Shown: positions 2,986 through 53,402, numbered from the stretch's first letter. The stretch is DNA of 64,000 nucleotides from Squalus acanthias (GCA_030390025.1 CM059431.1:142602001-142666000), one strand, 5' to 3'. Numbers and translations are program-made. Notes: generated from the letters alone by a model not told the origin.

Positions 2986-4654
2986 TGTAAGGGTTTTGTG
3001 TGTGTGACACCGCCTGTGGCTCTGCTCAGCCTGGGTGCTAGTGCGAGGTTAGGCCTTGTTGCCTGTTCTAGTCTCCAGCCAGTCTGGGAGCACTAGACAC
3101 CTGTGAGTGCTTCGACCCACTCGCCCTTACGGTTCTGACACTGGACTTAGATGCGAGAGCCATAATGGAGAGAAAACTCAGGTAGACCCGGTTGAATGAT
3201 ACGAAATGGAAAATCTTTATTGCATATTATTCAAGATTACGAAATACATGTCATAAGCACAGATTAATGACAGTACAATCTTACACGCAGTTATGTAACT
3301 AATTTTAGGGAAACGAGGAACGAACGACACATCGTAAATGGGGGCACACATTACAGTTATCCTTAAAACTTAAACCCTCCCCTATCAATACCTGCTCTAA
3401 ACTAGATTTGTAGGATCGAGACTCATGCTCACCACTCGTGATAACTCGGAGAATTCCGAAAACTCTGCTCGGATGTTTTTACCGCAGCACCTGATCACCC
3501 ACGTGGGTGATCAGGGGTCTCTACCCCACTTGTTTACTCGTTTCTGCTCCGGCTAGCAGGCTGGACCGTCTGCTGTCATGAAGATCTGTGTTGTCCTCGG
3601 AGTTCTGACACGACTCGAAAAATAGTCTTCCTGTGCCCTCGCCCCGATGCGATAAAACTCGAAGAATGGTCTTCCGATGCCAGTTCTGTAAAACTCAAAA
3701 GATAGTCTTCCTGGGCAAGGAAAATGTCTATTCGACCTACAGGCGCGGTCGGGCTTACTGACCGTGGCGATACGTATAGTCGTCCTCTTCTCATCTCATC
3801 TCATCTCATCTCGGGCCTTCGGTTCCAACACCGTTTACCGACTTCTCGGGATGGTGTGCCCATTTCAAGGCTTCACAGCCCGGTTCCACACAGATCTTCG
3901 CGGCAAGCCACGAGGCTGATCCTGGCGGATCAGAAAGTTCAATAGTCTTCTAGCAAGTCGAGCAGCAAGAGGCAGATGCAAGAGTCAGAGTCGCAGGCGA
4001 AGAAAGAGTCAAGCGGCAAGAGGATAAGAGAAAGATGGACGGTTGGAGCTTACAGTTATAGTGCTGAAATTCCTCTTTTCCCGCCCAATCTTAATGTCTT
4101 TTCTTTTGTCAGAGTTTTGGCGCCCAAACTTCTTGTATAGGGTGATCTCCGTTTTAATGGGTTTCGGTGATACTCATAACTGCCTGTTAATACTTTTCCC
4201 ATTGTGTAACCGGTCAGTATTCTCCCTGGAGGGGTTTTGGGGCTTCCAAATGTTTCTGTAACTACCCGCAAACGGCTCTCTCATCGTAGAGTCGTGGAGA
4301 TTTTGCATGTTAATGTCTTTGGATGGGTTCTTGATCGCTTGGTACAATAGCCCTTATTCGCACCTGGGAGACCGATTCCAGTATTTATGTGTAAAATGCA
4401 AACCCATTATGTCTTGTGATTTATCTCAAATGTGATGAGTCTTGTCCGATCTCGCACAAATGTTTATTGGAACGCCATCTTGTCTGCTTATCGAAAAGTC
4501 TAGAATGTTCTGCCACGAGGTGTGGCGGCCATTTTACAGGCTGCTTGTGTCCACTTTGAAAACCTGACAGCATTCTGCTGAAATAAAGCTGTTTGAACGA
4601 AACTATGTGTTTTCTCCTTATTTATAAAATCGCGATTATATTGCGAATTCTACA
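2986..4654 (-). repeat. 3' LTR (1669 bp)
   Basis: Near-identical to 10725-12416; TG..CA termini; TATAA on the minus strand at ~4056-4060 and AATAAA at 3216-3221. Confidence 0.95.
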
Positions 4655-5104: not shown

Positions 5105-7456
5105 TTACACGGTGCTTTCATCGTGCACGCGCACGTAACGTTCTCGCCACTCTCCCGTGTTTTCGTTCTTGGTGAGGCGTTTGCCTCTCTTACAATGCAC
5201 GACCAATAAGTATACCACAATAAACACTTGGCATACAACTAAAATGTGGGAGGCTATTCTAATCCAGGAAGGCACTTCAATGTTGGTGAACAGATTCCAC
5301 CACGGTGGAATTACTATGTCCAGAATTTCTGTCCCTATCTCGACAGTTTTCTGTTCTAGTGTGTAAAAATGTTTTTGTGATACCGCGACGGCTTTCAAAA
5401 GCTTGGTGAGGTGTTCAGGGAGAGGGGGAATGAGGTATCCGAAATGCGCGACGAATCGCTGCAGGTCGGTGAAGTTCTCTTTTACGGTAAGATGAACCGT
5501 GGATGGTTCAGGGATTGGGACAATTCGCTGTTGTGCTACTTGAACTTCCGCCCTGGGTTTGAAACAGAAACTGCTGTCACTCACCGGACACCGGCTACGG
5601 TTTCCATGCTGGTAGTGTTGCGCTGCAGTGGTAACACAATATGTTCCACCCCCGATGTATGCTACCTGCGGAGGCACATGATCTTGTGCCATTGCCTCCA
5701 TGGTGCAATTCATGGGCTTGGCACCAGCCGTTCTGAACCCGCACTGTGGTGTTAAAAAGGCATTCAAGTGCTGGGGACACAGTATTATGTGTGCTCCCCT
5801 GCCACGACAACCAGAGAGATCGGTACCTGCCATCGTTTGCTCCCAGCGGATGACTTAAGGTGGAACCGCTGCATAGCGAATGTGTGCTCCCCCCTGAATG
5901 ACACCAATGTTCTCTACCCGATACACCGGGGCGGGCTTTGCTGTGTTGCCCAAAACCGGCATACGTAATACTATACCCATGATAGTATGGTTTGATCGTC
6001 CGCAGTCCACGGGGACTGGGTATGCTTCTGAAGCTAGCCTGAGCTGGCACGGGCTTAATGCGTTCTGAAAAGGGTGGAGCACCCGCAGGTGTTTGTTACT
6101 TATCCAGGACGGGACCAAACCTTGTTTTAAATCCTCCAAATTACTGCGGCCCTCGCCCAGTAACCACGCCCCGTAAAGCACGCACACCTCATTCTGCGCA
6201 GCCTGATCGGACGCATTCCGATCTTCCCTAATCAGGGCATTTACCGTTCTCGCGTGTTTCTCTAGTTCAGCTATTATTTCTTTTAAATGGAGAGTCATGG
6301 CCTGGTCCTCGTGTAACCCAGACCCAACCACCTTATTTTCATCTGTGAGAATGTCTTTTAATTGCGTTTTTAAGCCATTAATCTGGGTCTGCAGCTCCAC
6401 GCTGTCTAGAGCGTTGACCACAGATGTACCTGTGTTGAAAGCAGTGAACACGTCGTTCAAAACACCCCTTCTTTGCCTCCCCACCTGATCCAAAACTTCA
6501 TGTGGTGCGGTGTACAAACTTGTTTTATCAATTTCCGCGAAATCGAATTCGTAAAATTGTCTGAACATCTTGGTCAACAGGACCTGATATAACTGTTCCG
6601 TCTTTTTGGGGCACCACTCTGGTAACTGTACCTCGGTGAGATTTAAAATCAACGAGGCCACCGCGTAATGTACCCCCTGAAATAGTATCTGGTCTGTGGG
6701 GACCAGTACCAAACCATTCCCGGGTCCCTTACTGGTTTTAGGGCACCCTTCTTCCTTAGCTAGAACCACCGGAATCGTGGGCGGGGCTTTGCGTGGGCGC
6801 GTAATGAGTTCAGTGGCATTTACCGGGATCGGGGAGAATGGGGCTCCGCACCCCCTGGTGCTCGCATCCCACCTCATCCCCTGTCCGTTATCCTGCCATT
6901 GATTAATGAAAAATATGGAGATGCCTTTGGGGCAAACGTACTTTGACCCCCACATACATACATAAATTCCCTCATCCGGTTCCCACCATTTGTCCCAACA
7001 GACTCTCACTTGTCCGTTTGTCCCCGTAATTGTCCGATGGGTATTATTACCCAGTCGTTCCCACTCGACCGAAGAGTTCCTCATATTTTTGCTCAGCTTT
7101 CGTAGCCACCACCATCGGCTCAATGGGACATTCCCATTACAAGTCAAACAAATCCATTTGCCGACGGTGACGCTGATCCTGGGTGCGATGATCCTTACTT
7201 TGGGGCACAGTAAAGAAGTCTCTTGGTAGGCAAAACCCGATGTGCTGGAATACTCCGTTGAGTTCGTTCCCAGCCATCCTGGCCACCTTCCCTTGTGGAA
7301 ATAGGTGGTGGTCTCCTCAGCCTCCCGCCTTCCGGTCCCATCCACCGCGATGGGGGCCGTGTCCCCGGAGCATCCAAACACCACGACATCCTTGGTGTGG
7401 CCTCGATAGGCCAATCCGCATCCGATTGCCGCGAGCAATACTAGAATTCGTTCCAT
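5105..7456 (-). pseudogene. env: env: class-I-fusion-like envelope glycoprotein (~780 codons), one in-frame TAA at 5855-5857
   Basis: Signal peptide MERILVLLAAIGCGLA; Ig-like motif (V.L.C..W..DEGIYVC); furin site RQRR/GVLNDVFTAF; heptad repeat; Cys-rich ectodomain; TM WIRIASHILVVCQVFIVVYLLVV; basic tail. ORFs 5855..7567 and 5105..5833 are in the same frame. Confidence 0.85.
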
Positions 7457-7619
7457 CCTTCCTTGGTTCCTGTGATCAGATAGAATGAGGTAGCCAGCCT
7501 CGCAAGAGTCTCTGGCTTTTGTGAAGGGTGAGCGGGTCCCCTGACCTCGCCTCACGTAAGAAGACATGTGCGCTGGATAAACTTTAACTAATCCTATCTC
7601 AAAAAAACTCCCATCATTT

Positions 7620-7792: not shown

Positions 7793-8485
7793 TTAAATTC
7801 TGAAAAGGCTGCCACGAGCCTTTCCCGACGGTGGGAGGGCATTGACCCCTCCCTTTGATCTGCCGCAGCCTGTTGCTGCCTCGCTGGGACTGGGACCTGC
7901 CTGGGCTGCCTGAGCCTTGTGCCTACGCCTTGGGCCAGTCTGGGGACTTGACCATATCTTCCTGGGTTGGGGTATCCGACTTGACCTACGGAGAGCTACC
8001 GGGGGCAGGAACTCCAGGACCGACGGACCGGGTTCCGAGACTTCCACCGTGGCGACCTGTGGTCCCGCCACAGTCGCTGGCTCCGCCTCCCCTGGCTCCG
8101 CCTCCCTGAACTCGGGAACTGCAGCTTGTGGCACCGCCCTACTCGGCCCAGTAGGCGGCCCTTCACTCGCAGTCCCTACCTCCCTCGAGGGCAAGACGTC
8201 CAAGGCGGGCGGCTCGGGCTCTGAGGCTTCCATCGCCACGCCCTGTGGTCCCACCACAGCGGCTGGCTCCGCCTCCCCTAGCTCCTCCCCCCTGCGTTCG
8301 GGACCTGCAGCTTCGGCCTCCACCCTGTGTGGATCTCTATCTGCAGCCCCTGTCTCCCCTATACCTGAATCGGGGGCGACCCTTTTCGTCCTCCGATTCC
8401 AGCTCCTCCTCGCTTGTGTCACTATCTTCGTCGAGCTCCTCGAACTCTTCCTCATCTGACTCCCAACCCCAATAAAATATCTCAC
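7793..8485 (-). CDS. ORF-X part 2: Pro/Ala/Glu-rich, internally duplicated, basic C-terminus; function unknown
   Basis: 230-codon open frame with a duplicated GEAEPA.V.GPQ...E.SEP.P..L..LP unit and an LRRSSRIPQPRK motif; overlaps ORF-X part 1 in another frame. Confidence 0.55.
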   Translation of the reverse strand: MRYFIGVGSQMRKSSRSSTKIVTQARRSWNRRTKRVAPDSGIGETGAADRDPHRVEAEAAGPERRGEELGEAEPAAVVGPQGVAMEASEPEPPALDVLPSREVGTASEGPPTGPSRAVPQAAVPEFREAEPGEAEPATVAGPQVATVEVSEPGPSVLEFLPPVALRRSSRIPQPRKIWSSPQTGPRRRHKAQAAQAGPSPSEAATGCGRSKGGVNALPPSGKARGSLFRI

Positions 8486-8912
8486 ATTTTTCTAGGATGT
8501 CCTCTCCCCTGATGCAAGCTGCTTTGCCTGCCTGTGTGCCCTGTGGCCCTACCTGGGGCTGCGAGTCCCCACTCGCAGGTTTGGCCCCTGTGGTAGGCCC
8601 TTGTGCGCCCGGCTTATACAGTTTGCACTGATTTACGTCCTCATTCTCCCTGCTTCTGGCTACCCTGTAGGCTGCTTTTATTTCTCTAAGCTGTGCTTCT
8701 AGCATGAGCACGTCTAACTTTCCCATTAAGCGGGCGTTCTCCTCCCGCAGGGCCTGCTCTCTAAGCTGCCCTTCCAGCCCATCTATTTTCCCTATTAAGC
8801 GGGCGTTCTCCTCCCGCAAGGGCTGCTCTTTTAACCTGGCCTCCTCACAGGAGACCCCCTCCTGTGCGTGTCTTTTAAAAGGACACAGGTAGGCAGGCTG
8901 CGTGGGCTCTAG
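8337..8912 (-). CDS. ORF-X part 1: coiled-coil plus acidic tract, in frame with gag beyond the TGA
   Basis: Stop-free from 8912 to the stop at 8337-8339 in the gag frame; LREENARL repeated twice; acidic run ESDEEEFEELDEDSDTSEEELESEDE. Confidence 0.65.
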   Translation of the reverse strand, partial: LEPTQPAYLCPFKRHAQEGVSCEEARLKEQPLREENARLIGKIDGLEGQLREQALREENARLMGKLDVLMLEAQLREIKAAYRVARSRENEDVNQCKLYKPGAQGPTTGAKPASGDSQPQVGPQGTQAGKAACIRGEDILEKCEIFYWGWESDEEEFEELDEDSDTSEEELESEDEKGRPRFRYRGDRGCR

Positions 8913-10720
8913 TCATTGGGTACTATTGGACGGGGCTGTGGCACTTGCGGGGCCGGTAGCAACCGCCACCCTTCCATGCGCACTCATGAGGTTACGCATG
9001 GCTCCCAACACTGATTCGATCGCGTCGGGATGGATGGGTGCACTAGCTCCCCTATCAGAGACAGGCGCCTGGGCTCGGGCTGCGGGATTTTTATCCCTGG
9101 AATCCTTCCAAGGGTTCCTGCAGTTCTTGCGCCAGTGCCCTGTCTTCCCACACCCGTAACAAGCATTGCTGGCCTGCGGGGCGCGGTTACCCTCCTGATG
9201 CCACTCCCTTTGAGCCGGGGCTGCGGGTCGTACCTCATGTACCTTTCCCTTAAGGGGACGTGTTCCCATACCCCTGGTATTATGGTACCCTACCGTGAGT
9301 CGATTTAGGACCGACTCCTCTGTAGTGGCGGGGTCAGTGGGATCAAACCACGCTTTTGCCTGCTCCCTGACGGCTGGCAAACTGTTGGCTACTATACACC
9401 TGAGCCAATGAGTTAAACCGACGCCTTCCACATCGGCGCGCTCTGGCGCACCTGGGCAGCTACGCTGGTATACTGGCCACAGCCTGTCGGCGAAAACCTT
9501 CGGGGGTTCTCCCTCCATCTGCACTGTCTGTCCATGTCTAACAAACGGACCTTCATCGTCCGCTCCCAACACTTCTAGGACCTCATCTCTTAGTGCCCCA
9601 TAGGTATTAGTTCCCCTCTTGCTCTCGTCTGAGAGACACTGAAGGATCGAACTATCTAATGAGAATAACAGCATCTTTGCTGTTTCCCCATCGTCGCAGC
9701 CGTTAATGGCTGCGGTTTGCTCTATTTCCCTAAAATGTACGGAAGGGTCGTCTGACTCGGCCAGTTTCCGTACGTGACTGATCATAATCCTCAGCTGGTG
9801 TGAGCTGTGAGGCAACACAAGCTGGTTGAGGAGATCCCCTTCTTCCCCACCGTCTCTGTTCGGGCCCCTTTTGATACCCGTAACCGGACACAACGGTCCC
9901 GGCTTCACTTCTACCTCAGTGGGCTCTTTCGTTACTTCCACCACTTCCTCCCTTACCCAGGTTGCCGAATAGCTGGGTGGTGCGGAGGGCATAGTGGCTA
10001 ATACTTCCTCTGCTTTGTTCGGTGGGGATTTCTGAAATCCCTCATCCACTAGCGGCTGGTGTGCTGACGGGCTGATAAGGCACACCATGCCGTGCGCTTT
10101 GTTCAAGGCCTGTTTAAGGTTCCCTATCTCTTTTTGGCAGACGCTGTGATCGGCCCCCTGAAATTTATCCTCGAGGGCCATCTTATATGCCGCCCTAACC
10201 CCCGTTAAGCTCTCTTCCTGGGCTTTTATTTGGGCAGCTAGGCGGGCACATCGTTCCTTTAATCTACCCTCACTTAATTTTGCCTCAGTGACCTGGCACT
10301 CGAGGTAATCTATTTTTGCTTTATGGTAGTTGGCGACTTCCTGGCATTCTTGATGCAACGCATTTAAAGTCGTGATGAGCTGCTGCCCCCCCCCGCGACC
10401 TTCTCGTCCATTTCCACCTCTAAACTCCTGATCTGAGCTGCCTGCGCTGAGATGACCTGGTCCGAAATTTGGACTTGTCTTTTATAGCACATCAGCCAGA
10501 CCGCTTTCTCCACTGCCTTTTTATGTTCTTTGCTATCTGTCCATCTCTCGGCTGCCTCTAGTGGACGCTTATCCACCAGCAGGTCACTTATCCATTTCTT
10601 GGTCAAATTCACTTTTCCGAACACATAATCTGCTATTCTCTCTTCCATGACATTTCGCCCATTCATACCAGGGTCTAACACATTATTCTCTCGCTGCCAA
10701 TATCCTGCCGCGGTCGCCAT
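8913..10720 (-). CDS. gag: gag polyprotein (~600 aa), one frameshift at the G9 homopolymer 10386-10394
   Basis: N-terminal coiled coil; PSAPPSY late-domain motif; capsid-like segment (DPSVHFREIEQTAAINGC); zinc knuckle CYGCGKTGHWRKNC (9120-9161). Adding one G to the run joins the two ORFs. Confidence 0.85.
10702..10719 (-). promoter_or_regulatory. Primer-binding site (tRNA-Ser-like)
   Basis: TGGCGACCGCGGCAGGAT, 5 nt inside the 5' LTR; its complement resembles the 3' end of vertebrate tRNA-Ser (ATCCTGCCG....CGCCA). Confidence 0.65.
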
Positions 10721-10724
10721 TTTC

Positions 10725-12416
10725 TGTAAGGGTTTTTGTGTGTGTGACACCGCCTGTGGCTCTGTGCTCAGCCTGGGTGCTAGTGCGAGGTTAGGCCTTG
10801 TTGCCTGTTCTGGTCTCCAGCCAGTCTGGGAGCACTAGACACCTGTGAGTGGTTCGACCCACTCGCCCTTACGGTTCTGACACTGGACTTAGATGCGAGA
10901 GCAATAATGGAGAGAAAACTCAGGTAGACCCGGTTGAATGGTACGAAATGGAAAATCTTTATTGCATATTATTCAAGATTACGAAATACATGTCATAAGC
11001 ACAGATTAATGACAGTACAATCTTACACGCAGTTATGTAACTAATTTTAGGGAAACGAGGAACGAACGACACATCGTAAATGGGGGCACACATTACAGTT
11101 ATCCTTAAAACTTAAACCCTCCCCTATCAATACCTGCTCTAAACTAGATTTGTAGGATCGAGACTCATGCTCACCACTCGTGATAACTCGGAGAATTCCG
11201 AAAACTCTGCTCGGATGTTTTTACCGCAGCACCTGATCACCCACGTGTTGATCAGGGGTCTCTGTACCCCACTTGTTTACTCGTTTCTGCTCCGGCTAGC
11301 AGGCTGGACCGTCTGCTGTCATGAAGATCTGTGTTGTCCTCGGAGTTCCGACACGACTCGAAAAATAGTCTTCCTGTGCCCTCGCCCCGATGCGATAAAA
11401 CTCGAAGAATGGTCTTCCGATGCCAGTTCTGTAAAACTCAAAAGATAGTCTTCCTGGGCAAGGAAAATGTCTATTCGACCTACAGGCGCGGTCGGGGCTT
11501 ACTGACCGTGGCGATACGTATGGTCGTCTTCTTCTCTTCTCATCTCATCTCATCTCATCTCAGCTCGGGCCTTCGGTTTCAACACCGTTTACCGACTTCT
11601 CGGGATGGTGTGCCCGTTTCAAGGCTTCACAGCCCGGTTCCACACAGATCTTCGCGGCAAGCCACGAGGCTGATCCTGGCGGATCAGAAAGTTCAATAGT
11701 CTTCTAGCAAGTCGAGCAGCAAGAGGCAGATGCAAGAGTCAGAGTCGCAGGCGAAGAAAGAGTCAAGCGGCAAGAGGATAAGAGAAAGATGGACGGTTGG
11801 AGCTTACAGTTATAGTGCTGAAATTCCTCTTTTCCCGCCCAATCTTAATGTCTTTTCTTTTGTCAGAGTTTTGGCGCCCAAACTTCTTGTATAGGGTGAT
11901 CTCCGTTTTAATGGGTTTCGGTGATACTCGTAACTGCCTGAGTACCTGTTAATACTTTTCCCATTGTGTAACCGGTCAGTATTCTCCCTGGAGGGGTTTT
12001 GGGGCTTCCAAATGTTTCTGTAACTACCCGCAAGCGGCTCACTCATCGTAGAGTCGTGGGGATTTTGCATGTTAATGTCTTTGGATGGGTTCTTGATCGC
12101 TTGGTACAATAGCCCTTATTCGCACCTGGGAGACCGATTCCAGTATTTATGTGTAAAATGCAAACCCATTATGTCTTGTGATTTATCTCAAATGTGATGA
12201 GTCTTGTCCGATCTCGCACAAATGTTTATTGGAACGCCATCTTGTCTGCTTATCGAAAAGTCTAGAATGTTCTGCCACGAGGTGTGGCGGCCATTTTACA
12301 GGCTGCTTGTGTCCACTTTGAAAACCTGACAGCATTCTGCTGAAATAAAGCTGTTTGAACGAAACGATGTGTTTTCTCCTTATTTATAAAATCGCGATTA
12401 TATTGCGAATTCTACA
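10725..12416 (-). repeat. 5' LTR (1692 bp)
   Basis: Direct repeat of 2986-4654 with scattered substitutions and small indels. Confidence 0.95.
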
Positions 12417-13282: not shown

Positions 13283-16200
13283 CAGTCTCTGGAGGAGGTC
13301 TCGGTCAGTCTCCTCTGGAGGAGGTCTCGGTCAGTCTCCTCTGGAGGAGGCCTCGGTCAGTCCCCTCTGGAGGAGGTCTCGGTCAGTCCCCTCTGGAGGA
13401 GGTCTCGGTCAGTCTCCTCTGGAGGAGGTCACGGTCAGTCTCCTCTGGAGGAGGTCTCGGTCAGTCTCCTCTGGAGGAGGTCTCGGTCAGTCTCTGGAGG
13501 AGGTCTCGGTCAGTCTCCTCTGGAGGAGGTCTCGGTCAGTCTCCTCTGGAGGAGGCCTCGGTCAGTCCCCTCTGGAGGAGGTCTCGGTCAGTCCCCAATG
13601 GAGGAGGTCTCGGACATTCCCCAATGGAGGAGGTCTCGGACATTCTCCCCTGGAGGAGGTCTCGGTCAGTCCCCTCTGGAGGAGGTCTCGGTCAGTCCCC
13701 TCTGGAGGAGGTCTCGGTCAGTCCCCTCTGGAGGAGGTCTCGGTCAGTCTCCTCTGGAGGTGGTCTCGGTCAGTCTCTGGAGGAGGCCTCGGTCAGTCTC
13801 TCTAGGAGGTCTCAGTCAGTCCCCTCTGGAGGAGGCCTCGGTCAGTCTCCTCTGGAGGAGGTCTCTGTCAGTCTCCTCTGGAGGAGGTCTCGGTCAGTCT
13901 CTGGAGGAGGCCTCGGTCAGTCTCCTCTGGAGGAGGTCTCGGTCAGTCCCCTCTGGAGGAGGCCTCGGTCAGTCTCCTCTGGAGGAGGTCTCGGTCAGTC
14001 TCCACTGGAGGAGATCACGGTCAGTCTCTGGAGGAGGTCTCGGTCAGTCTCTGGAGGAGGTCTCGGTCAGTCTCCTCTGGTGGAGGTCTCGGTCAGTCTC
14101 TGGAGGAGGTCTCGGTCAGTCTCCTCTGGAGGAGGTCTCGGTCAGTCTCCTCTGGAGGAGGTCTCCGTCAGTCTCTGGAGGAGGTCTCGGTCAGTCTCTG
14201 GAGGAGGTCTCGGTCAGTCTCTGGAGGAGGTCTCGGTCAGTCTCTGGAGGAGGTCTCGGTCAGTCTCCTCTGGAGGAGGTCTCGGTCAGTCCCCTCTGGA
14301 GGAGGTCTCCGTCAGTCCCCTCTGCAGGAGGTCTCAGTCAGTCTCCTCTGCAGGAGGTCTCGGTCAGTCCCCTCTGGAGGAGGTCTCGGTCAGTCCCCTC
14401 TGAAGGAGGTCTCGGTCAGTCTCTGGAGGAGGTCTCGGTCAGTCTCCTCTGAAGGAGGTCTCCGTCAGTCCCCTCTGGAGGAGGTCTCGGTCAGTCCCCT
14501 CTGGAGGAGGCCTCGGTCAGTCTCCTCCTGGAGGCGATCACGGTCAGTCCCCTTTGGAGGAGGTCTCGGTCACTCCCCTTTGGAGGAGGTCTCGGTCACT
14601 CCCCTTTGGAGGAGATCTCGGTCACTCCCCTCTGGAGGAGGTCTCGGTCAGTCTCTGGAGGAGGTCTCGGTCAGTCCCCTCTGGAGGAGGTCTCGGTCAG
14701 TCCACTCTGGAGGAGGTCTCGGTCAGTCTCTGGAGGAGGTCTCGGTCAGTCTCCTCTGGAGGAGGTCTCGGCCAGTCTCCTGGAGGAGGTCTCGGTCAGT
14801 CTCTGGAGGAGGCCTCGGTCAGTCCCCTCTGGAGGAGGCCTTGGTCAGTCCCCTCTGGAGGAGGTGTCGGTCAGTCCCCTCTGGAGGAGGTCTCGGTCAG
14901 TCTCTGGAGGAGGTCTCGGTCAGTCCCCTCTGGAGGAGGTCTCGGTCAGTCCCCTCTGGAGGAGGTCTTGGTCAGTCCCCTCTGGAGGAGGTCTCGGTCA
15001 GTCTCCTCTGGAGGAGGTCTCGGTCAGTCCCCTCTGGAGGAGGTCTCGGTCAGTCCCCTCTGGAGGAGGTCTCGGTCAGTCTCTGGAGGAGGTCTCGGTC
15101 AGTCTACTCTGGAGGAGGTCTCGGTCACTCCCCTCTGGAGGAGGTCTCGGTCAGTCTCCACTGGAGGAGATCACGGTCAGTCTCTGGAGGAGGTCTCGGT
15201 CAGTCTCTGGAGGAGGTCTCGGTCAGTCTCCTCTGGTGGAGGTCTCGGTCAGTCTCTGGAGGAATTCTCGGTCAGTCCCCGGAGGAGGTCTCGGTCAGTC
15301 CCCTCTGGAGGAGGTCTCGGTCAGTCCCCTCTGGAGGAGGTCTCGGTCAGTCCCCTCTGGACGAGGTCTCGGTCAGTCCCCTCTGGTGAAGGTCTCGGTC
15401 AGTCTACTCTGGAGCAGGTCTCGGTCAGTCCCCTCTGGAGCAGATCTCGGTCAGTCCCCTCTGGAGGAGGTCTCGGTCAGTCTCTGGAGGAGGTCTCGGT
15501 CAGTCACCTCTGGAGGAGGTTTCGGTCAGTCCCCTCTGGAGCAGATCTCGGTCATTCCCCTCTGGAGGAGGTCTCGGTCAGTCTCTGGAGGAGGTCTCGG
15601 TCAGTCTCCTCTGGAGGAGGTCTCGGTCAGTCACCTCTGGAGGAGGTCTCGGTCACTCCCCTCTGGAGGAGGTCTCGGTCAGTCTCCTCTGGAGCAGGTC
15701 TCGGTCAGTCTACTCTGGAGCAGTTCTCGGTCACTCCCCTCTGGAGGAGGTCTCGGTCACTCCCCTCTGGAGGAGGTCTCGGTCAGTCCCATCTGGATGT
15801 GGTCTCGGTCAGTCCCATCTGGAGGAGGTCTCGGTCAGTCCCCTCTGGAGGAGGTTTCGGTCAGTCTCGTCTGGTGGAGGTCTCGGTCAGTCTCTGGAGG
15901 AGGTCTCGGTCAGTCCCCTCTGGAGGAGGTCTCGGTCAGTCCCCTCTGGCGGAGGTTTCGGTCAGTCTCCTCTGGAGGAGGTCTCGGTCAGTCTCCTCTG
16001 GAGGAGGTCTCGGTCAGTCTCCTCTGGAGGAGTTCTCGGTCAGTCTCTCTAGGAGGCCTCGGTCAGTCACCTCTGGAGGAGGTCTCGGTCAGTCTTTGGA
16101 GGAGGTCTCAGTCAGTCCCCTCTGGAGGAGGTCTCGGTCAGTCCCCTCTGGAGGAGGTCCCGGTCTGTCCCCTCTGGAGTCTTCTTTGGAGGAGGTCTCG

Positions 16201-19200
16201 GTCAGTCTCCTCTGGAGCAGGTCTCGGTCATCCTCTGGAGGAGGTCTCGGTCAGTCCCCTCTGGAGGAGGTCTCGGTCAGTCTCTGGAGGAGGTCTCGGT
16301 CAGTCTCCTCTGGAGGAGGTCTCGGTCAGTCTCTGGAGGAGGTCTCGGTCAGTCACCTCTGGAGGAGGTCTCGGTCAGTCCCCTCTGGATGTGGTCTCGG
16401 TCAGTCCCCTCTGGATGTGGTCTCGGTCAGTCCCCTCTGGAGGAGGTTTCGGTCAGTCTCCTCTGGAGGAGGTCTCGGTCAGTCTCTGGAGGAGGTCTCG
16501 GTCAGTCCCCTCTGGAGGAGGTCTCGGTCAGTCCCCTCTGGAGGAGGTTTTGGTCAGTCTCCTCTGGAGGAGTTCTCGGTCAGTCTCTCTAGGAGGCCTC
16601 GGTCAGTCTCCTCTGGAGGAGGTCTCGGTCAGTCCCCTCTGGAGGAGGTCTCGGTCAGTCCCCTCTGGAGGAGGTCCCGGTCTGTCCCCTCTGGAGGAGG
16701 TCCTGGTCTGTCCCCTCTGGAGGAGGTCTCGGTCAGTCAGTCTCTGGAGGAGGTCACGGTCAGTCTCCTCTTGAGGAGGTCTCGGTCAGTCCTCTTTGGA
16801 GGAGGTCTCGGTCAGTCTCCTTTGGTGGAGGTCTCGGTCAGTCTTTGGAGGAGGTCTCGGTCAGTCCCCTCTGGAGGAGGTCCCGGTCTGTCCCCTCTGG
16901 AGGAGGTCTCGGTCAGTCAGTCTCTGGAGGAGGTCTCGGTCAGTCTCCTCTGGAGGAGGTCTCGGTCAGTCCTCTTTGGAGGAGGTCTCGGTCAGTCTCC
17001 TCTGGAGGTCTCGGTCAGTCCCCTCTGGAAGAGGTCTCGGTCAGTCTCCTCTGGAGGAGGTCTCGGTCAGTCCCCTCTGGGGGTGGTCTCGGTCAGACTC
17101 CTCTGGAGGAGGTCTCGGTCAGTCTCTGGAGGAGGTCTCGGTCAGTCTCCTCTGGAGGAGGTCTCGGTCAGTCTCTGGAGGAGGTCTCTGTCAGTCTCCT
17201 CTGGAGGTGGTCTCGGTCAGTCTCTGGAGGAGGTCTCGGTCAGTCTCTGGAGGAGGTCTCGGTCAGTCTCTGGAGGAGGTCTCGGTCAGTCCCCTCTGGG
17301 GGTGGTCTCGGTCAGTGTCCTCTTGAGGAGGTCTCGGTCAGTCCTCTTTGGAGGAGGTCTCGGTCAGTCTCCTCTGGACGTCTCGGTCAGTCCCCTCTGG
17401 AAGAGGTCTCGGTCAGTCTCCTCTGGAGGAGGTCTCGGTCAGTCTCTGGAGGAGGTCTCGGTCACTCCCCTCTGGGGGTGGTCTCGGTCAGACTCCTCTG
17501 GAGGAGGTCTAGGTCAGTCCCCTCTGGAGGAGGTCTCGGTCAGTCTCCTCTGGAGGTGGTCTCTGTCAGTCACCTCTGGAGGAGGTCTCGGTCAGTCTTT
17601 GGAGGAGGTCTCAGTCAGTCCCCTCTGGAGGAGGTCTCGGTCAGTCCCCTCTGGAGGAGGTCCCGGTCTGTCCCCTCTGGAGTCTTCTTTGGAGGAGGTC
17701 TCGGTCAGTCTCCTCTGGAGCAGGTCTCGGTCATCCTCTGGAGGAGGTCTCGGTCAGTCCCCTCTGGAGGAGGTCTCGGTCAGTCTCTGGAGGAGGTCTC
17801 GGTCAGTCTCCTCTGGAGGAGGTCTCGGTCAGTCTCTGGAGGAGGTCTCGGTCAGTCACCTCTGGAGGAGGTCTCGGTCAGTCCCCTCTGGATGTGGTCT
17901 CGGTCAGTCCCCTCTGGATGTGGTCTCGGTCAGTCCCCTCTGGAGGAGGTTTCGGTCAGTCTCCTCTGGAGGAGGACTCGGTCAGTCTCTGGAGGAGGTC
18001 TCGGTCAGTCCCCTCTGGAGGAGGTCTCGGTCAGTCCCCTCTGGAGGAGGTTTCGGTCAGTCTCCTCTGGAGGAGTTCTCGGTCAGTCTCTCTAGGAGGC
18101 CTCGGTCAGTCTCCTCTGGAGGAGGTCTCGGTTAGTCTTTGGAGGAGGTCTCGGTCAGTCCCCTCTGGAGGAGGTCTCGGTCAGTCCCCTCTGGAGGAGG
18201 TCCCGGTCTGTCCCCTCTGGAGGAGGTCCTGGTCTGTCCCCTCTGGAGGAGGTCTCGGTCAGTCAGTCTCTGGAGGAGGTCTCGGTCAGTCTCCTCTTGA
18301 GGAGGTCTCGGTCAGTCCTCTTTGGAGGAGGTCTCGGTCAGTCTCCTTTGGTGGAGGTCTCGGTCAGTCTCCTCTGGAGGAGGTCTCGGTCAGTCTTTGG
18401 AGGAGGTCTCGGTCAGTCCCCTCTGGAGGAGGTCCCGGTCTGTCCCCTCTGGAGGAGGTCTCGGTCAGTCAGTCTCTGGAGGAGGTCTCGGTCAGTCTCC
18501 TCTGGAGGAGGTCTCGGTCAGTCCTCTTTGGAGGAGGTCTCGGTCAGTCTCCTCTGGAGGTCTCGGTCAGTCCCCTCTGGAAGAGGTCTCGGTCAGTCTC
18601 CTCTGGAGGAGGTCTCGGTCAGTCCCCTCTGGGGGTGGTCTCGGTCAGACTCCTCTGGAGGAGGTCTCGGTCAGTCTCTGGAGGAGGTCTCGGTCAGTCT
18701 CCTCTGGAGGAGGTCTCGGTCAGTCTCTGGAGGAGGTCTCTGTCAGTCTCCTCTGGAGGTGGTCTCGGTCAGTCTCTGGAGGAGGTCTCGGTCAGTCTCT
18801 GGAGGAGGTCTCGGTCAGTCTCTGGAGGAGGTCTCGGTCAGTCTCTGGAGGAGGTCTCGGTCAGTCCCCTCTGGGGGTGGTCTCGGTCAGTGTCCTCTTG
18901 AGGAGGTCTCGGTCAGTCCTCTTTGGAGGAGGTCTCGGTCAGTCTCCTCTGGACGTCTCGGTCAGTCCCCTCTGGAAGAGGTCTCGGTCAGTCTCCTCTG
19001 GAGGAGGTCTCGGTCAGTCTCTGGAGGAGGTCTCGGTCACTCCCCTCTGGGGGTGGTCTCGGTCAGACTCCTCTGGAGGAGGTCTCGGTCAGTCCCCTCT
19101 GGAGGAGGTCTCGGTCAGTCTCCTCTGGAGGTGGTCTCTGTCAGTCTCCTCTGGAGGAGGTCTCGGTCAGTCTCTGGAGGAGGTCTCGGTCAGTCTCTGG

Positions 19201-20045
19201 AGGAGGTCTCGGTCAGACTCCTCTGGAGGAGGTCTCGGTCAGTCTCCTCTGGAGGTGGTCTCTGTCAGTCTCCTCTGGAGGTGGTCTCGGTCAGTCTCTG
19301 GAGGAGGTCTCGGTCAGTCTCCTCTGGAGGTGGTCTCTGTCAGTCTCCTCTGGAGGTGGTCTCTGTCAGTCTCTGGAGGAGGTCTCGGTCAGTCTGCTCT
19401 GGAGGTCTCAGTCAGTCCCCTCTGGAGGAGGTCTCGGTCAGTCTCCTCTGGAGGAGGTCTCGGTCAGTCTCTGGAGGAGGTCTCGGTCAGTCCCCTCTGG
19501 GGCTGGTCTCGGTCAGACTCCTCTGGAGGAGGTCTCGGTCAGTCCCCTCTGGAGGAGGTCTCGGTCAGTCTCTGGAGGAGGTCTCGGTCAGTCTCTGGAG
19601 GAGGTCTCGGTCAATCCCCTCTGGGGGTGGTCTCGGTCGGACTCCTCTGGAGGAGGTCTCGGTCAGTCTCTGGAGGAGGTGTCGGTCAGTCTCCTCTGGA
19701 GAAGGTCTCGGTCAGTCTCCTCTGGAGGAGGTCTCGGTCAGTCTCCTCTGGAGGAGGTCTCGGTCAGTCCCCTCTGGACGAGGTCTCGGTCAGTCTCCTC
19801 TGGAGGAGGTCTCGGTCAGTCCCCTCTGGAGGAGGTCTCTGTCAGTCTCCTCTGGAGGAGGTCTCGGTCAGTCTCCTCTGGAGGAGGTCTCGGTCAGTCT
19901 CCTCTGGAGGAGGTCTCGGTCAGACTCCTCTGGAGGTGGTCTCGGTCAGTCCCCTCTGGAGGAGGTCTCGGTCAGTCTCCTCTGGAGGAGGTCTCGGTCA
20001 GTCTCCTCTGGAGGTGGTCTCGGTCAGTCCCCACTGGAGGAGGTT
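13283..20045. repeat. Satellite array, 26-bp unit GGAGGAGGTCTCGGTCAGTCYCCTCT with a 23-bp variant
   Basis: About 6.8 kb of directly visible tandem units; variant blocks recur at ~1.5-kb spacing. Confidence 0.97.
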
Positions 20046-23329: not shown

Positions 23330-24553
23330 CTATAATGCTGCAATAAAAGAGCACTGTTTCACTTTAAATTGTGTCTGTACCTTTATTTGCCTTGCTGGGG
23401 GAGGGGGAGGTACAAGGCGACAATACCTCGTGAAGGTGTTGGCTACCAGCTGCTCCCGAACAGCCTTACTTTGAGCAGCAGTTGGCTCTTCCCCATCAGG
23501 CCTTCCCACAGGCACATTGGCATTGTCCACGTCCTCCATTTCTGCAGGTAGTTCATCTGCAGCGTTAAGGGTCAGTCCTTCCCACAGGGCAAAGTTATGC
23601 AAAGCACAACAGACCACCACAATCTTTGCCACTTTCAGAGGAGAATACTGCAAGGTCCCCCCTGACCTGTCCAGGCACCGGAAGCGTGATTTCAGAACTC
23701 CGATTGGCCACTCCACCACTTGCCGTGTGGACACGAGTGCCTGGTTGTATCTCTCCTGAGCCTCATTATTGGTCTTGCGGTAGGGAGTCATCAGCCATGG
23801 TCTTAGCGGGTAGCCCTTGTCGCCCAATATCCATGCGGATCCTGGAGGCAATGCGTTGAGGGCGCCATATAAGTTAGAGTTACGGAGGACGAAGGAGTCA
23901 TGATTACTTCCACGGTTACTTGCATTCACATTTAAGATGCTGAGATGTGCATCACAGACAATCTGGGCATTCCTGTTGATAAATGTCACAGGTGCAACCC
24001 CTGGTGCCTTCAATGCTACATGGGTTCCATCGACAGCCCCAATCACTTTGGGGAATCCAGCAATGTTATGAAATGCAAGCGCCATCTCCTTTTGATGGCG
24101 AGCGGACAAGTCATAGTTAATGAACTCAGAAGCCCTATGGAAAATGGCTTCTGTGACCTGGTGAATGCAGGCCCTCGCAGCATTCTTGGATTTGTTGGAA
24201 ATGTCACCGGTGCTTGCCTGAAAAGTCCTACTTGCAAAGAAGTTCAGTGCTGTGGTTACCTTCATATTCACTGACAAGGCAGTGACGGTTTTCGAGCGTG
24301 TTTGAAGGTCCTCCTTTAACATGTCACAGATTCGGCCAATTGACTCTTTACTGAAGCGCAGCCTCCTCACACACAACTCCTCCGACAGCATCTCAAATGA
24401 CAGCCTCTCTCTGTACACTCTATTTGGTGGGTAGTAGTTTCTCCTTCTCAGGAGGAGACGGGCTTGGTTCCTCTGTCTGATTTGTTGTCTGGCATCAAAA
24501 ATTCTCTGATACAAAATCCCACAGAGGAACAGGAATTGATTGTGAAAGGGCAT
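23330..24553 (-). CDS. HARBI1-like DDE transposase, probably defective
   Basis: GFPKVIGAVDGTHV, GSNHDSFV, LGDKGYPLRPWLMTP and TRQVVE..IGVLKSRFRCL motifs; the usual K.GxHSI segment between FINR and NAQIVCD is missing. Confidence 0.9.
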   Translation of the reverse strand: MPFHNQFLFLCGILYQRIFDARQQIRQRNQARLLLRRRNYYPPNRVYRERLSFEMLSEELCVRRLRFSKESIGRICDMLKEDLQTRSKTVTALSVNMKVTTALNFFASRTFQASTGDISNKSKNAARACIHQVTEAIFHRASEFINYDLSARHQKEMALAFHNIAGFPKVIGAVDGTHVALKAPGVAPVTFINRNAQIVCDAHLSILNVNASNRGSNHDSFVLRNSNLYGALNALPPGSAWILGDKGYPLRPWLMTPYRKTNNEAQERYNQALVSTRQVVEWPIGVLKSRFRCLDRSGGTLQYSPLKVAKIVVVCCALHNFALWEGLTLNAADELPAEMEDVDNANVPVGRPDGEEPTAAQSKAVREQLVANTFTRYCRLVPPPPPARQIKVQTQFKVKQCSFIAAL

Positions 24554-25142
24554 CTTTCTCCCTCACAGGCTTCCACTTCATACTGAAAGTTGTAATGAAA
24601 AAATGGAAATAGTTGTTAAAGTAACTTTAGTAAAGTGAGTGGCTATAAAATCAGGTCGGGCTATGGTGGGAAACGTGTGCTATCGGATTGGGAACACATC
24701 TACCCGCCACACGGCCCTAGTTGATTTTCCAGAACTGTAACATTTTCATAAATTAATGCATACATACATACATACATAGATACTTACTTACTCATTTTCA
24801 TCTTTAAAACTTTTGAAATGTAAATAGTTCATTTTTAAACTTTCATTTTCACATTTATGATAGATACCTAAATATGCCTTGTTCACACCTACAGTTGCTA
24901 TACTACTCCAAATGGTCAAAACCCGTTTTTAAACTTTTTTTTAAATTGCAAACTTATCTGAGACTTAATTAAATAAACTTTGGTGGCTTTCAGATTTAAA
25001 AAAACTCACTTCAGTAGCCCCACTGCAAAAGGATTTATTCCTCCTGCTGTCTCTGGATCTTCAAAAATGGCTCTTACTCCTGCTTTTTACATGTGTAACT
25101 GCTAGGAGCTTACACACACTACTTTCATTCAGAAAAAATATT

Positions 25143-49602: not shown

Positions 49603-50523
49603 ATGGCAGGGGAGGCAGTGAAATGTTCCTCCTGCAGAATGTTTGAGGTGAGGGACGCCGTAGGTGTCCCTGCTGATTACACCTGTGGGAAGTGCACCCA
49701 TCTCCAGCTCCTCGAAAACCGTGTTAGGGAACTGGAGCTGGATGAACTTCGGATCATTCGGGAGGCAGAGGAGGTCATAGACAGAAGCTTCAGGGATGTA
49801 ATTACTCCAAAGCATGAAGATAGATGGGTGACGGTGAGAGGGGCTAGGAGGAAGCAGTCAGTGCAGGGATCCTCTGTGGTCGTTCCCCTCAGTAACAGGT
49901 ATACCGCTTTGAATACTGTTGAGGGGGACGACTTACCAGTGGTAAGCCATGGTGACCGGATCTCCGGCGCTGGGTCCGTCCCTGTGGCTCAGAAGGGAAG
50001 GGGGGAGAGCAGGAGAGCAATAGTTATTGGGGACTCAATAGACAGAGGGACAGATAGGAGGTTCTGTGGCAGCAAAGGAGACTCACGGATGGTATGTTGC
50101 CTCCTGGGTGCCAGGGTCCGTGACGTCTAGGACCGTGTTTTCAGAATCCTCAAAGGGGAGGGGGAACAATCACAAGTCGTGGTACACATTGGTACCAACG
50201 ACATAGGTAGGAGAAGGGACGGGGATTTAAAACAGGAATTTAGGGAGCTAGGTTGGAAGCTGAGAGCCAGTACAAACCATGTTGTCATTTCTGGTTTGTT
50301 GCCGGTGCCACGTGCTAGCGAGTTGAGGAACAGGGAGAGAGTGCAGATAAACACGTGGCTGCAGGGATGGTGTAGCGGGGAGGGTTTCAGTTATGTGGAT
50401 AATTAGAGCACATTCTGGGGAAACTGGGACCTGTACAAACAGGACGGTTTGCACCTGAACCAGAGGGGCACCAATATCCTGGGAGGGAAATTTGCTACTG
50501 CTCTTCGGGGGGGTTTAAACTAA
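49603..50523 (+). pseudogene. CR1 ORF1 (zinc finger, leucine zipper, SGNH esterase) with two in-frame TAG stops (50128-50130, 50404-50406)
   Basis: CSSC..CGKC, IVIGDS, VHIGTND and DGLH motifs, all in one frame. Confidence 0.88.
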
Positions 50524-50543
50524 TTTGTCAGGGGGATGGGAAA

Positions 50544-53402
50544 ATGGGCTGTAGTCCAGGAGCCAGTGGTGAGTGTAGGGAGGTACTGAGGAGGGTATCA
50601 AGGTCGCAGGAATGTACCGGCAGACAGGAAGATGGCTTGAAGTGTGTCTACTTCAATGCAAGGAGCATCCGGAATAAGGTAGGAGAACTTGGAGCGTGGA
50701 TTGGTACTTGGGACTACGATGTGGTGGCCATTACGGAGACATGGTTAGAACAGGGACAGGAATGGTTGTTGGAAGTTCCGGGGTATAGATGTTTCAGTAA
50801 GAGTAGGGAAGTTGATAAGAAAGGTGGAGGAGTAGCATTGTTAATCAAGGATAGTTTAACAGCGGCAAAAAGGCAGTTCGAGGGGGATCTGCCGTCTGAG
50901 GTAATATGGGCTGAAGTTAGAAATAGGATAGGAGTTTTCTACAGGCCCCCAAATAGTAATAGAGATGTGGAGGAAGAAATTGCAAAGCAGATTATGAATA
51001 GGTGTGGAGGTCACAGAGTAGTTGTCATGGGTGACTTCAACTTTCCAAATATGGATTGGAACCTTTATAGGTCAAACAGTTCGGATGGGATAGTTTTTGC
51101 ACAGTGTGTGCAGGAGGGTTTCCTGACACAATATGTGGATAGGCCGACAAGAGGTGGGGCCACGTTGGATTTGGTACTGGGTAATGAACCGGGCCAAGTG
51201 TTTGATTTGTATGTGGGAGAGCACTTTGGAGATAGTGACCACAATTCGGTAACTTTCACTATTGCAATGGAGAGGGATAGGGCCATACGGCAGGGCAGGG
51301 TTTATAATTGGGGGAGGGGTAATTATGATGCGATTAGGCAAGAATTAGGGAGTATAAGATGGGAACAGAAACTATCAGGGAAAGGCACAAACGAAAAGTG
51401 GAGCTTTTTCATGGAGCAATTACTGCGTGTCCTTGATAGGTATGTCCCTGTCAGGCAGGGAGGAAATGGCCGAGTGAGAGAACCATGGTTCACAAAAGAG
51501 GTTGAATGTCTAGTCAAGAGGAAAAAGGAAGCGTATGTAAGGATGAGAAAACAAGGTTCAGTTGGGTCGATTGAGGGGTACAAGGTAGCAAGGAATGAGC
51601 TAAAAAAAGAGCTTAGGAGAGCTAGGAGGGGGCATGAGAAGTCCTTGGCGGGTCGGATCAAGGAAAACCCCAAGGCTTTTTACTCTTATGTGAGAAATAA
51701 AAGAATGACCAGGGTGAGGGTAGGGCCGGTCAAGGACAGTAGTGGGAACTTGTGCATGGAGTCAGAAGAGATAGGAGAGGTGATGAATGAATACTTTTCG
51801 TCAGTGTTCACCGAGGAGAGGGGCCATGTTCTTGAGGATGAGAGTGTGATAAAGGTGGATAGGCTGGAGGTGGTAGATGTTCTGAGGGAAGATATTTTAG
51901 CAATTTTGAAGAACCTGAGGGTCGATAAGTCCCCTGGGCCAGATGGGATATATCCTAGGATTCTTTGGGAGGCAAGGGAGGAGATTGCAGAGCCTCTGGC
52001 TTTGATCTTTGGGTCCTCACTGTCCACGGGAATGGTGCCAGAGGACTGGAGAGTGGCGAATGTTGTTCCTCTCTTCAAGAAAGGAAATAGGAATGACCCT
52101 GGTAATTATAGGCCGGTTAGTCTTACTTCGGTGGTTGGTAAGATAATGGAAAAGGTCCTGAGGGATAGGATTTATGACCATTTGGAAAGGGGCAACTTAA
52201 TCAGGGATAGTCAACACGGATTCGTGAAGGGTAAGTCTTGCCTAACAAATTTGATTGAATTCTTTGAGGAGGTAACTAATTGTGTAGATGAAGGTAGAGC
52301 AGTTGATGTCGTGTACATGGATTTTAGTAAGGCGTTTGATAAGGTTCCCCATGGTCGGCTCATGAAGAAAGTAAGGAGTTGTGGGATAGAGGGAAATTTG
52401 GCCGATTGGATAAGTAACTGGCTATCTCATAGAAGGCAGAGGGTGGTGGTGGATGGAACATTTTCGGACTGGAGACCAGTTATCAGCGGTGTACCACAGG
52501 GGTCGGTGCTGGGTCCTCTGCTGTTTGTGATTTTTATCAATGACTTGGAGGAGGGGACTGAAGGGTGGATCAGTAAATTTGCTGATGACACCAAGATTGG
52601 TGGAGCAGTGGATGAGGTGGAGGGCTGTTGTAGGCTGCAAAGAGACATTGATAGGATGCAGAGCTGGGCTGAAAAATGGCAGATGGAATTTAACCCTGAT
52701 AAGTGCGAGGTGATTCATTTTGGTAGGGCAAATTTGAATAAGGTTTACAGGGTCAACGGCAGGGTTCTGAGGAACGTGGAGGAGCAGAGGGATCTGAGGG
52801 TTCATATCCACCGATCTCTGAAGGTTGCCACTCAAGTGGATAGAGCAGTAAAGAAGGCCTATGGTGTGTTGGCGTTTATTAACAGACGTTTTGAGTTTAA
52901 GAACCGTGAGGTTATGCTGCAACTGTACAGGACCTTGGTGAGACCATATTTGGAATATTGTGTGCAGTTCTGGTCACCTCACTATAGGAAGGACGTGGAA
53001 GCATTGGAAAGAGTGCAAAGGAGATTTACCAGGATGCTGCCTGGTTTGGGGGGGAGGTCTTATGAGGAAAGATTGAGGGAGTTAGGGCTTTTCTCTTTAG
53101 AGCGGAGGAGGATGAGAGGCGACTTAATAGAGGTTTATAAGATGATGAGGGGGATAGATAGAGTGGATGTTCAGAGACTATTTCCTCGGGTAGAGGCAGC
53201 TGTTACAAGGGGGCATAACTATAAGGTGCATGGGGGGAGATACAGAAGGGATGTCCGAGGTAGATTCTTTACTCAGAGAGTGGTTGGGGTGTGGAATGGA
53301 CTGCCTGCTGTGATAGTGGAGTCGGACACTTTAGGAACTTTCAAGCAGTTATTGGATAAGCACATGGAGCACACCAGAGTGATAGGGAGTGTGATAGCTT
53401 GA
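50544..53402 (+). CDS. CR1 ORF2: APE endonuclease + reverse transcriptase (952 aa, open)
   Basis: YFNARSI, ITETW, GDFN, SDH, YRPVSLTS, DFSKAFD, GVPQGSVLGP and FADD motifs. Confidence 0.96.
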   Translation: MGCSPGASGECREVLRRVSRSQECTGRQEDGLKCVYFNARSIRNKVGELGAWIGTWDYDVVAITETWLEQGQEWLLEVPGYRCFSKSREVDKKGGGVALLIKDSLTAAKRQFEGDLPSEVIWAEVRNRIGVFYRPPNSNRDVEEEIAKQIMNRCGGHRVVVMGDFNFPNMDWNLYRSNSSDGIVFAQCVQEGFLTQYVDRPTRGGATLDLVLGNEPGQVFDLYVGEHFGDSDHNSVTFTIAMERDRAIRQGRVYNWGRGNYDAIRQELGSIRWEQKLSGKGTNEKWSFFMEQLLRVLDRYVPVRQGGNGRVREPWFTKEVECLVKRKKEAYVRMRKQGSVGSIEGYKVARNELKKELRRARRGHEKSLAGRIKENPKAFYSYVRNKRMTRVRVGPVKDSSGNLCMESEEIGEVMNEYFSSVFTEERGHVLEDESVIKVDRLEVVDVLREDILAILKNLRVDKSPGPDGIYPRILWEAREEIAEPLALIFGSSLSTGMVPEDWRVANVVPLFKKGNRNDPGNYRPVSLTSVVGKIMEKVLRDRIYDHLERGNLIRDSQHGFVKGKSCLTNLIEFFEEVTNCVDEGRAVDVVYMDFSKAFDKVPHGRLMKKVRSCGIEGNLADWISNWLSHRRQRVVVDGTFSDWRPVISGVPQGSVLGPLLFVIFINDLEEGTEGWISKFADDTKIGGAVDEVEGCCRLQRDIDRMQSWAEKWQMEFNPDKCEVIHFGRANLNKVYRVNGRVLRNVEEQRDLRVHIHRSLKVATQVDRAVKKAYGVLAFINRRFEFKNREVMLQLYRTLVRPYLEYCVQFWSPHYRKDVEALERVQRRFTRMLPGLGGRSYEERLRELGLFSLERRRMRGDLIEVYKMMRGIDRVDVQRLFPRVEAAVTRGHNYKVHGGRYRRDVRGRFFTQRVVGVWNGLPAVIVESDTLGTFKQLLDKHMEHTRVIGSVIA

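Follow-up and report, generated by a model that had tools for sequence, protein, structure and literature searches.

Among retroviruses, readthrough of the gag stop to produce Gag-Pol has been verified only in the gammaretroviruses, with a UAG stop and a pseudoknot, according to the accessible sections of a 2026 review (PMC13517186). A UGA gag stop is listed there for SSSV, ZFERV and a frog endogenous retrovirus (ERV), and UGACUA is given for the alphaviruses CHIKV and SINV and for PSIV; those sections name no retrovirus with UGACUA, and the word ‘lokiretrovirus’ does not occur in the review. UGA-CUAG is a readthrough context of vertebrate genes (Loughran et al. 2014, PMC4132726), and UGA-CUA by itself supports 1.5% readthrough in human cells in the accessible part of that report. 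We have analysed a 64,000-nucleotide stretch of DNA from Squalus acanthias (GCA_030390025.1 CM059431.1:142602001-142666000, hereafter the window; host genome 3.7 Gb), which carries on its minus strand a 9.4 kb long terminal repeat (LTR) element (12416-2986). The element belongs to a young retrovirus family whose gag ends in TGA-CTAG, and the window copy is one of the pol-less members. The heptamer is identical to that of the vertebrate genes; unlike there, it joins gag to pol in a retroelement. We consider it probable, though not strongly so, that this is a true Gag-Pol readthrough stop and that in the pol-less form the signal and the open frame behind it are mostly inherited and refreshed.

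The minus-strand letters at 8918-8909 are CAATGACTAG, with the TGA at 8915-8913, and 191 codons without a stop follow it before a TAG at 8339-8337. Both were read correctly in an original prediction, which took the site for a retained Gag-Pol expression signal now followed by a ‘non-Pol’ coiled-coil and acidic open reading frame (ORF X) and yielding a minor Gag-X fusion that could enter particles. TGACTAG is uncommon: of the 2,465 TGA triplets in the window, both strands counted, 4 stand in this heptamer, as does 1 of 123 in the sense strand of the element. The TGA closes a Gag frame that contains a single CCHC knuckle (Pfam zf-CCHC, E 0.003, under the curated cut-off). Junctions were counted in the genome by exact pattern, all counts being lower bounds: there are at least 1,931 of pol type, at least 978 of X type and at least 194 of a further pol-less type. 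Among 20 copies chosen by gag similarity, 17 have pol straight after the same junction and three have X. The post-stop frame of pol-bearing copies encodes protease, reverse transcriptase (RT), tether, RNase H and integrase, followed by about 290 tail residues that have no match in Pfam. When 20 copies were taken in genome order, this frame was open for at least 1,490 codons in 12.

In pol-bearing copies a single TGA separates gag and pol, which share one frame, after the nucleocapsid knuckle and before the protease DTG. In gamma- and epsilon-like retroviruses, too, the Gag zinc knuckle and the DTG are separated by one in-frame stop, but the contexts listed for them are UAG-G or UGA-AGA/CGA/AGU, as far as the accessible sections go (PMC13517186), whereas the family here has UGA-CUA. 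The heptamer is found in 53 of 56 pol-bearing copies, the remaining three being single variants, and it is kept while the codons on both sides of it vary. The first ATG of the post-stop frame is codon 24 and the DTG is at 36; the Pfam RVP match spans residues 17-114 and thus begins ahead of that ATG. Codons 1-23 were compared across the 55 of 56 pol-bearing copies with ATG 24 in place. They show 13 shared synonymous versus 4 shared non-synonymous changes (omega, the dN/dS ratio, 0.13-0.16; p 8e-5 to 4e-4), and no comparable selection signal was seen in the two other frames of these copies. Changes confined to single copies look neutral (5 synonymous to 11 non-synonymous plus two stops). Purifying selection is thereby shown to act on the 23 start-less codons that follow the stop. 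Since they evolve as protein without their own start codon, these codons are very likely translated, and we hold with high confidence, from sequence comparison, that Gag-Pol is made by readthrough of TGA-CTAG in the pol-bearing members.

Folding of pol-type sequences gave no stable structure 3′ of the stop (z +0.6 to +1.6), a further difference from gamma- and epsilon-like readthrough, and the structure in X-type sequences is marginal (z -1.5 to -2.2; three folds in each case, without pseudoknots). As no stable downstream structure was found in pol-bearing copies, the level of readthrough is probably a few per cent or less. Two points weigh against the assignment of readthrough: a spliced pol mRNA would likewise place codons 1-23 under selection, and the copies are kin, so the counts are of non-independent events. 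Four contig-only runs cover the element at 85% likeness; their RNA status is guessed, which makes them uninformative on transcription or splicing.

At the DNA level the window copy matches the pol-bearing form as far as 8881 and again from 8638 onwards. X thus consists of Pol residues 1-11, an insert of 80 codons, and the part of Pol that begins at about residue 1217 and reaches its end; the frame is kept at both joints. About three quarters of a family-length X is Pol tail, and the acidic part of X is Pol sequence. The label ‘non-Pol’ is thus mistaken for most of the frame; the coiled coil lies in the insert, which pol-bearing copies lack. Comparison of the residues after the stop with pol-bearing relatives, which the prediction had proposed, identified the first 11 as the start of Pol. 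The heptamer is present in 74 of 80 pol-less copies, and the idea that a Gag-Pol expression signal has been kept is upheld. These 80 came from the first 100 listed places, less four tandem neighbours, two already sampled and the last 14. Taken in genome order, X is open for at least 340 codons in 69 of them; stops or frameshifts just past the TGA are not the rule in other copies. Of the first 30 copies chosen by similarity to the window, 20 have an open X. The length of 191 residues holds for the window copy and not for the family, in which X measures 358-423 codons (first 60 pol-less copies): the early TAG at 8337 results from a frameshift near 8385, which is shared by no other fetched pol-less copy screened, and the remainder of the tail lies in ORF 7793-8491. 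The window copy also carries a gag frameshift near 10390, so that a ribosome starting at the gag ATG (10720) would stop at 10364, before the TGA. Gag-X cannot therefore be made from this copy, contrary to what had been supposed.

The tail of X shows little sign of constraint. Among open copies omega is 0.95-1.11 for the tail in pol-less and 1.19 in pol-bearing copies, compared with about 0.4 for gag and 0.10 for RT plus integrase. A pol-type partner at 97% or above was found for 32 of 53 pol-less tails, from only 18 pol-type tails sampled, and the pol-less and pol-type labels interleave in a tail tree. Tails are most likely shared between the two forms by recombination; given this interleaving, the tail would be refreshed from elements in which it has to be intact, and the end of gag with its stop context probably likewise. 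In 27 of 30 copies of a second pol-less subfamily, the further type counted above, gag ends in TGA-CTGG; where Pol is unneeded, CUAG is thus not fixed. This subfamily has a different gag end, a single coiled-coil unit and a longer insert that ends like the start of the Pol tail.

In the reading that we prefer, a few ribosomes would pass the gag TGA-CTAG of pol-bearing copies to give Gag-Pol. In the pol-less form the coiled-coil insert stands, in frame, in place of protease to integrase; unbroken copies would yield a minor Gag-X fusion, mostly Pol tail, and would be mobilised by the enzymes of pol-bearing copies. Co-packaging would likely lead to recombination between the forms, by which the gag end, stop context and tail are continually refreshed. 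The signal and most of the open frame would be inherited or refreshed in this way, with at most weak selection keeping the insert in frame.

Several observations weigh against mere inheritance. Across 138 copies the insert, which cannot come from pol-bearing copies, has no shared stops versus 2.9-3.9 expected (P 0.02-0.054) and differs in length by multiples of three in 135; its omega is 0.65-0.81 (p 0.04-0.21). Three different joints between insert and pol are all in frame. In copy L079 the insert meets integrase about 46 residues further upstream, in frame. X is open in 20 of 30 copies of the CTGG subfamily, three of them tandem, although its tail is distinct (best pol-type match about 83-88%, mean 0.845) and none of the pol-bearing copies sampled is a close partner. 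Among 59 pol-less copies, the shared indels in X comprise 13 in frame and a pair of neighbouring events, both in one set of 16 copies, with a net change of +33; past X, the non-coding sequence has 3 in-frame versus 29 shifting indels, 4 of them at the alignment edge. As every shared variant is counted as a single event and recombination is left out of account, the p values from these allele counts are rough. The absence of shared stops, the in-frame length changes and the three independent 3′ joints would fit a Gag-X that is itself a selected cis-acting protein, whose captured Gag-type coiled coil ties the Pol tail to the particle or helps pol-less RNA compete for helper enzymes. The form has reached about 1,000 copies or more, and the tail motifs RRS..PQPR and WxW persist in 82-85 of 89 copies, but these motifs and the frame itself could be imported from pol-bearing copies. 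There is a precedent in mouse intracisternal A particle (IAP) 1-delta-1, a non-autonomous and highly successful internal deletion whose in-frame Gag-Pol-derived fusion acts in cis and which needs its enzymes in trans (review PMC6466679, in the part available); autonomous relatives are present in the genome here. The fusion in the shark element, however, sits behind a leaky stop and would be scarce, unlike that of IAP 1-delta-1; env is kept, a coiled coil has been captured, and a cis function is described for the IAP element only.

The insert resembles the N-terminal coiled coil of Gag over 43 residues without a gap, 1 and 0 of 1,000 shuffles equalling the score. Coiled-coil periodicity inflates such alignments (the Env control scored 49, against 61-70 for Gag with the insert), and there is no match at the DNA level. 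A donor was sought without success: pol-bearing loci gave no DNA match, all 150 scored protein matches look like pol-less copies by identity, ten stretches that surround the motif of the extended insert and the 30 loci retrieved with the DNA of the insert alone are all pol-less elements, and matches in a protein atlas are weak (<0.9). The insert may have its origin in the gag of a diverged relative, and not in the family’s own. With an insert omega not clearly below 1, a tail omega of about 1 and one pol-less subfamily with CTGG instead of CTAG, we regard a cis-acting Gag-X as rather unlikely. Only the insert shows evidence of selection on Gag-X at the sequence level, and that evidence is weak; a selected function of some kind is possible for Gag-X but is not the option that we favour. 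The frame, not the protein, might also be what matters, if readthrough over the first 1.1 kb of a long 3′ untranslated region lowered nonsense-mediated decay of the pol-less RNA. This would fit a frame kept while omega is near 1, and readthrough elements do inhibit this decay in reporters, but the level of readthrough required depends on the distance to the mRNA end (PMC5360307, accessible part), and at least about 4 kb of untranslated RNA remains past the X stop. In pol-bearing copies the omega of the Pol tail is the same, so that the pattern calls for no new cause, and we judge this explanation improbable. Foamy viruses make Pol from spliced RNA. If the family did likewise, for Pol and for X, CTAG would be a splice acceptor; it fits YAG, the RT lineage is deep-branching, and the best matches among solved structures include Pol and integrase of foamy viruses. 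Yet no pyrimidine tract precedes CTAG, unlike at the putative env acceptor, a single TGA parts gag from pol in a shared frame, and lokiretroviruses have CTAG or CTAA, which keeps the readthrough hexamer and not the AG position. Splicing is thus a very improbable source of Pol, and readthrough is retained as the preferred account.

The lokiretroviruses offer a parallel for the signal. In the accessible parts of the PMC7947760 supplement, seven gag or smc-gag genes are annotated separately in the consensus sequences; six of them end in TGA followed by CTA, and the seventh (Tfu) has TGN-CTAA at an apparently matching place. TGA-CTAG is found in Ofa, Pyo, Sau and Cne and TGA-CTAA in Bsp, Dcl and Lro, with pol in frame by eye; Loki-Cne is a further element, beyond the seven annotated gag genes. 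In nine other entries Gag-Pol is annotated as one continuous polyprotein. None of the terms readthrough, stop codon and frameshift occurs in the main text of PMC7947760. Besides UGA-CUA between gag and pol in several members, lokiretroviruses share with the family a tether plus second RNase H and a coiled coil at the Gag N-terminus, and their F-like Env with an RXKR-type site has a possible counterpart in it; they differ in that the RT of the family groups apart, its Gag has a CCHC knuckle and its Pol a long acidic tail. ‘Readthrough’ is likewise absent from the main texts of PMC7947760, PMC9040795, PMC8922424, PMC5210030, PMC5512871 and two preprints, and PMC12440569 has one ‘read-through’ in an unrelated sense. 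A literature search found no paper combining ‘UGA CUAG’, readthrough and retrovirus; figures, Repbase and most subscription papers were outside its scope.

As X is mostly Pol tail, Gag-X is less exotic than the original prediction held, and UGA-CUA as a gag-pol signal common to two deep retroviral lineages is the more interesting lead. Found both in a young family of many copies and in the consensus sequences of lokiretroviruses, it would put a second kind of signal close to the base of retrovirus phylogeny. The pol-less form is in turn a natural test of whether a recoding signal in a helper-dependent ERV is kept by a useful product or by recombination that restores it. One may speculate, though we think it rather unlikely, that UGA-CUA readthrough, common to lokiretroviruses and this separate deep lineage, is an overlooked, deeply conserved and so possibly ancestral device of retroviruses, which a pol-less parasite with a thousand copies has turned into a switch for a minor, cis-acting Gag fusion in which a captured Gag-type coiled coil is joined to the Pol tail.

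The nearest named relatives of Pol are unclassified frog and coelacanth proteins (41-45%). In an RT-tether tree of 47 rows, the query and these relatives form a clade (SH-aLRT 96), with seven Loki-motif rows in a separate group (SH-aLRT 99) and the query clade outside it; joining the two was rejected (AU test p 0.0014). This is a quick tree, in which Loki labels were assigned by the RT motif from the PMC7947760 supplement and not by reference sequences. Both RT_RNaseH_2 and RNase_H were matched in Pol, corresponding to tether and second RNase H, which are common to all retroviruses. The env frame of another copy has feature matches to Baculo_F and Fusion_gly clusters (0.92-0.94); Env gave no Pfam or PDB sequence match, and its single-sequence model is unusable (pLDDT 34). 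No longer Gag homologue was found at E 0.001 among 8,000 scored protein candidates. The foamy-like ERVs of fish, shark and frog (PMC5210030 and PMC5512871, accessible parts) resemble the family in their deep-branching RT and long LTRs; shark and frog members of that group form one cluster, and the named proteins nearest to the family here include those of frogs. Teleost members have a Gag without Cys-His boxes (PMC5210030, accessible part), while the Gag here has one, and this CCHC knuckle argues against foamy-like membership; a motif search of the PMC5512871 supplements gave no match. We have filed the family as an unclassified deep-branching retrovirus, seemingly lokiretrovirus-like in its Env and gag-pol signal and not in its RT.

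The coordinates of the window copy are collected in Table 1. The layout is LTR, a tRNA-Arg primer site lying over the gag ATG at 10720, gag, TGA-CTAG, ORF X, env and LTR, with no pol. The LTR pair has 14 mismatches against 1,651 matches in 1,665 aligned bases. In other family copies the gag frames run to 600-650 codons. With the stop in env at 5857-5855, the window copy has three defects, the other two being the frameshifts in gag (about 10390) and X (about 8385).

Table 1. Features of the pol-less element, numbered from the first letter of the window.
Feature	Position	Strand	Remarks
5′ LTR (TG...CA, ~1.69 kb)	10725..12416	-	direct repeat with 3′ LTR
gag (N-terminal coiled coil, one CCHC knuckle)	8916..10720	-	frameshifted in window copy at G run near 10390
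Primer-binding site, tRNA-Arg(UCG)	10703..10719	-	complement matches 3′ end of host tRNA-Arg(TCG) genes
TGA-CTAG, gag stop and putative readthrough context	8909..8915	-	kept in most copies of both forms (counts in text)
Pol residues 1-11 (start of protease region), retained after deletion	8881..8912	-	DNA and protein match to pol-bearing form stops at 8881
80-codon coiled-coil insert with internal 69-nt duplication	8639..8880	-	not in pol-bearing copies; protein-level likeness to Gag N-terminal coiled coil; weak constraint
Pol C-terminal tail: last integrase SH3-like strand and ~280 acidic/Pro-rich residues	7793..8638	-	matches Pol from ~residue 1217 to end
Splice-acceptor-like pyrimidine tract and CAG	7454..7495	-	putative, read from sequence; just 5′ of likely env ATG (7456)
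env, putatively F-glycoprotein-like, furin site	5105..7456	-	in-frame stop 5857-5855 in window copy
3′ LTR, preceded by purine tract	2986..4654	-	5-bp target duplication GAGAG flanks element

An Ig-like pattern of cysteine and tryptophan can be seen by eye in the N-terminal part of Env (about 6900-7200, minus strand), and the gene model of a frog relative ends in an Ig-like stretch similar to it. In one family copy (L151) a deletion has removed most of gag and the stop, leaving the Gag N-terminus fused straight to X in frame. Another (L033:6696-8274) has a related LTR, about 79% identical, nested within pol. Tandem arrays of the pol-less element occur at C1:143657934-143673398 and C3:64285890-64318007, with spacings of about 7.7 kb and 6.4 kb. 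At C26:38.9-42.2 Mb, tRNA genes, tRNA-Arg(TCG) among them, form long tandem arrays with a 1,623-bp repeat; the pattern has 424 matches genome-wide. Elsewhere in the window, a 6.8 kb minisatellite (13287-20044; 266 copies of a 26-bp unit) gives rise to many long spurious ORFs. A DDE_Tnp_4 transposase lies at 23330-24562 (minus strand), a perfect 987-bp inverted repeat with a 63-bp spacer at 42216-44252, a LINE endonuclease-RT frame of 999 codons at 50403-53402 (plus strand) and an intronless rhodopsin-family receptor frame at 61168-62259 (minus strand).

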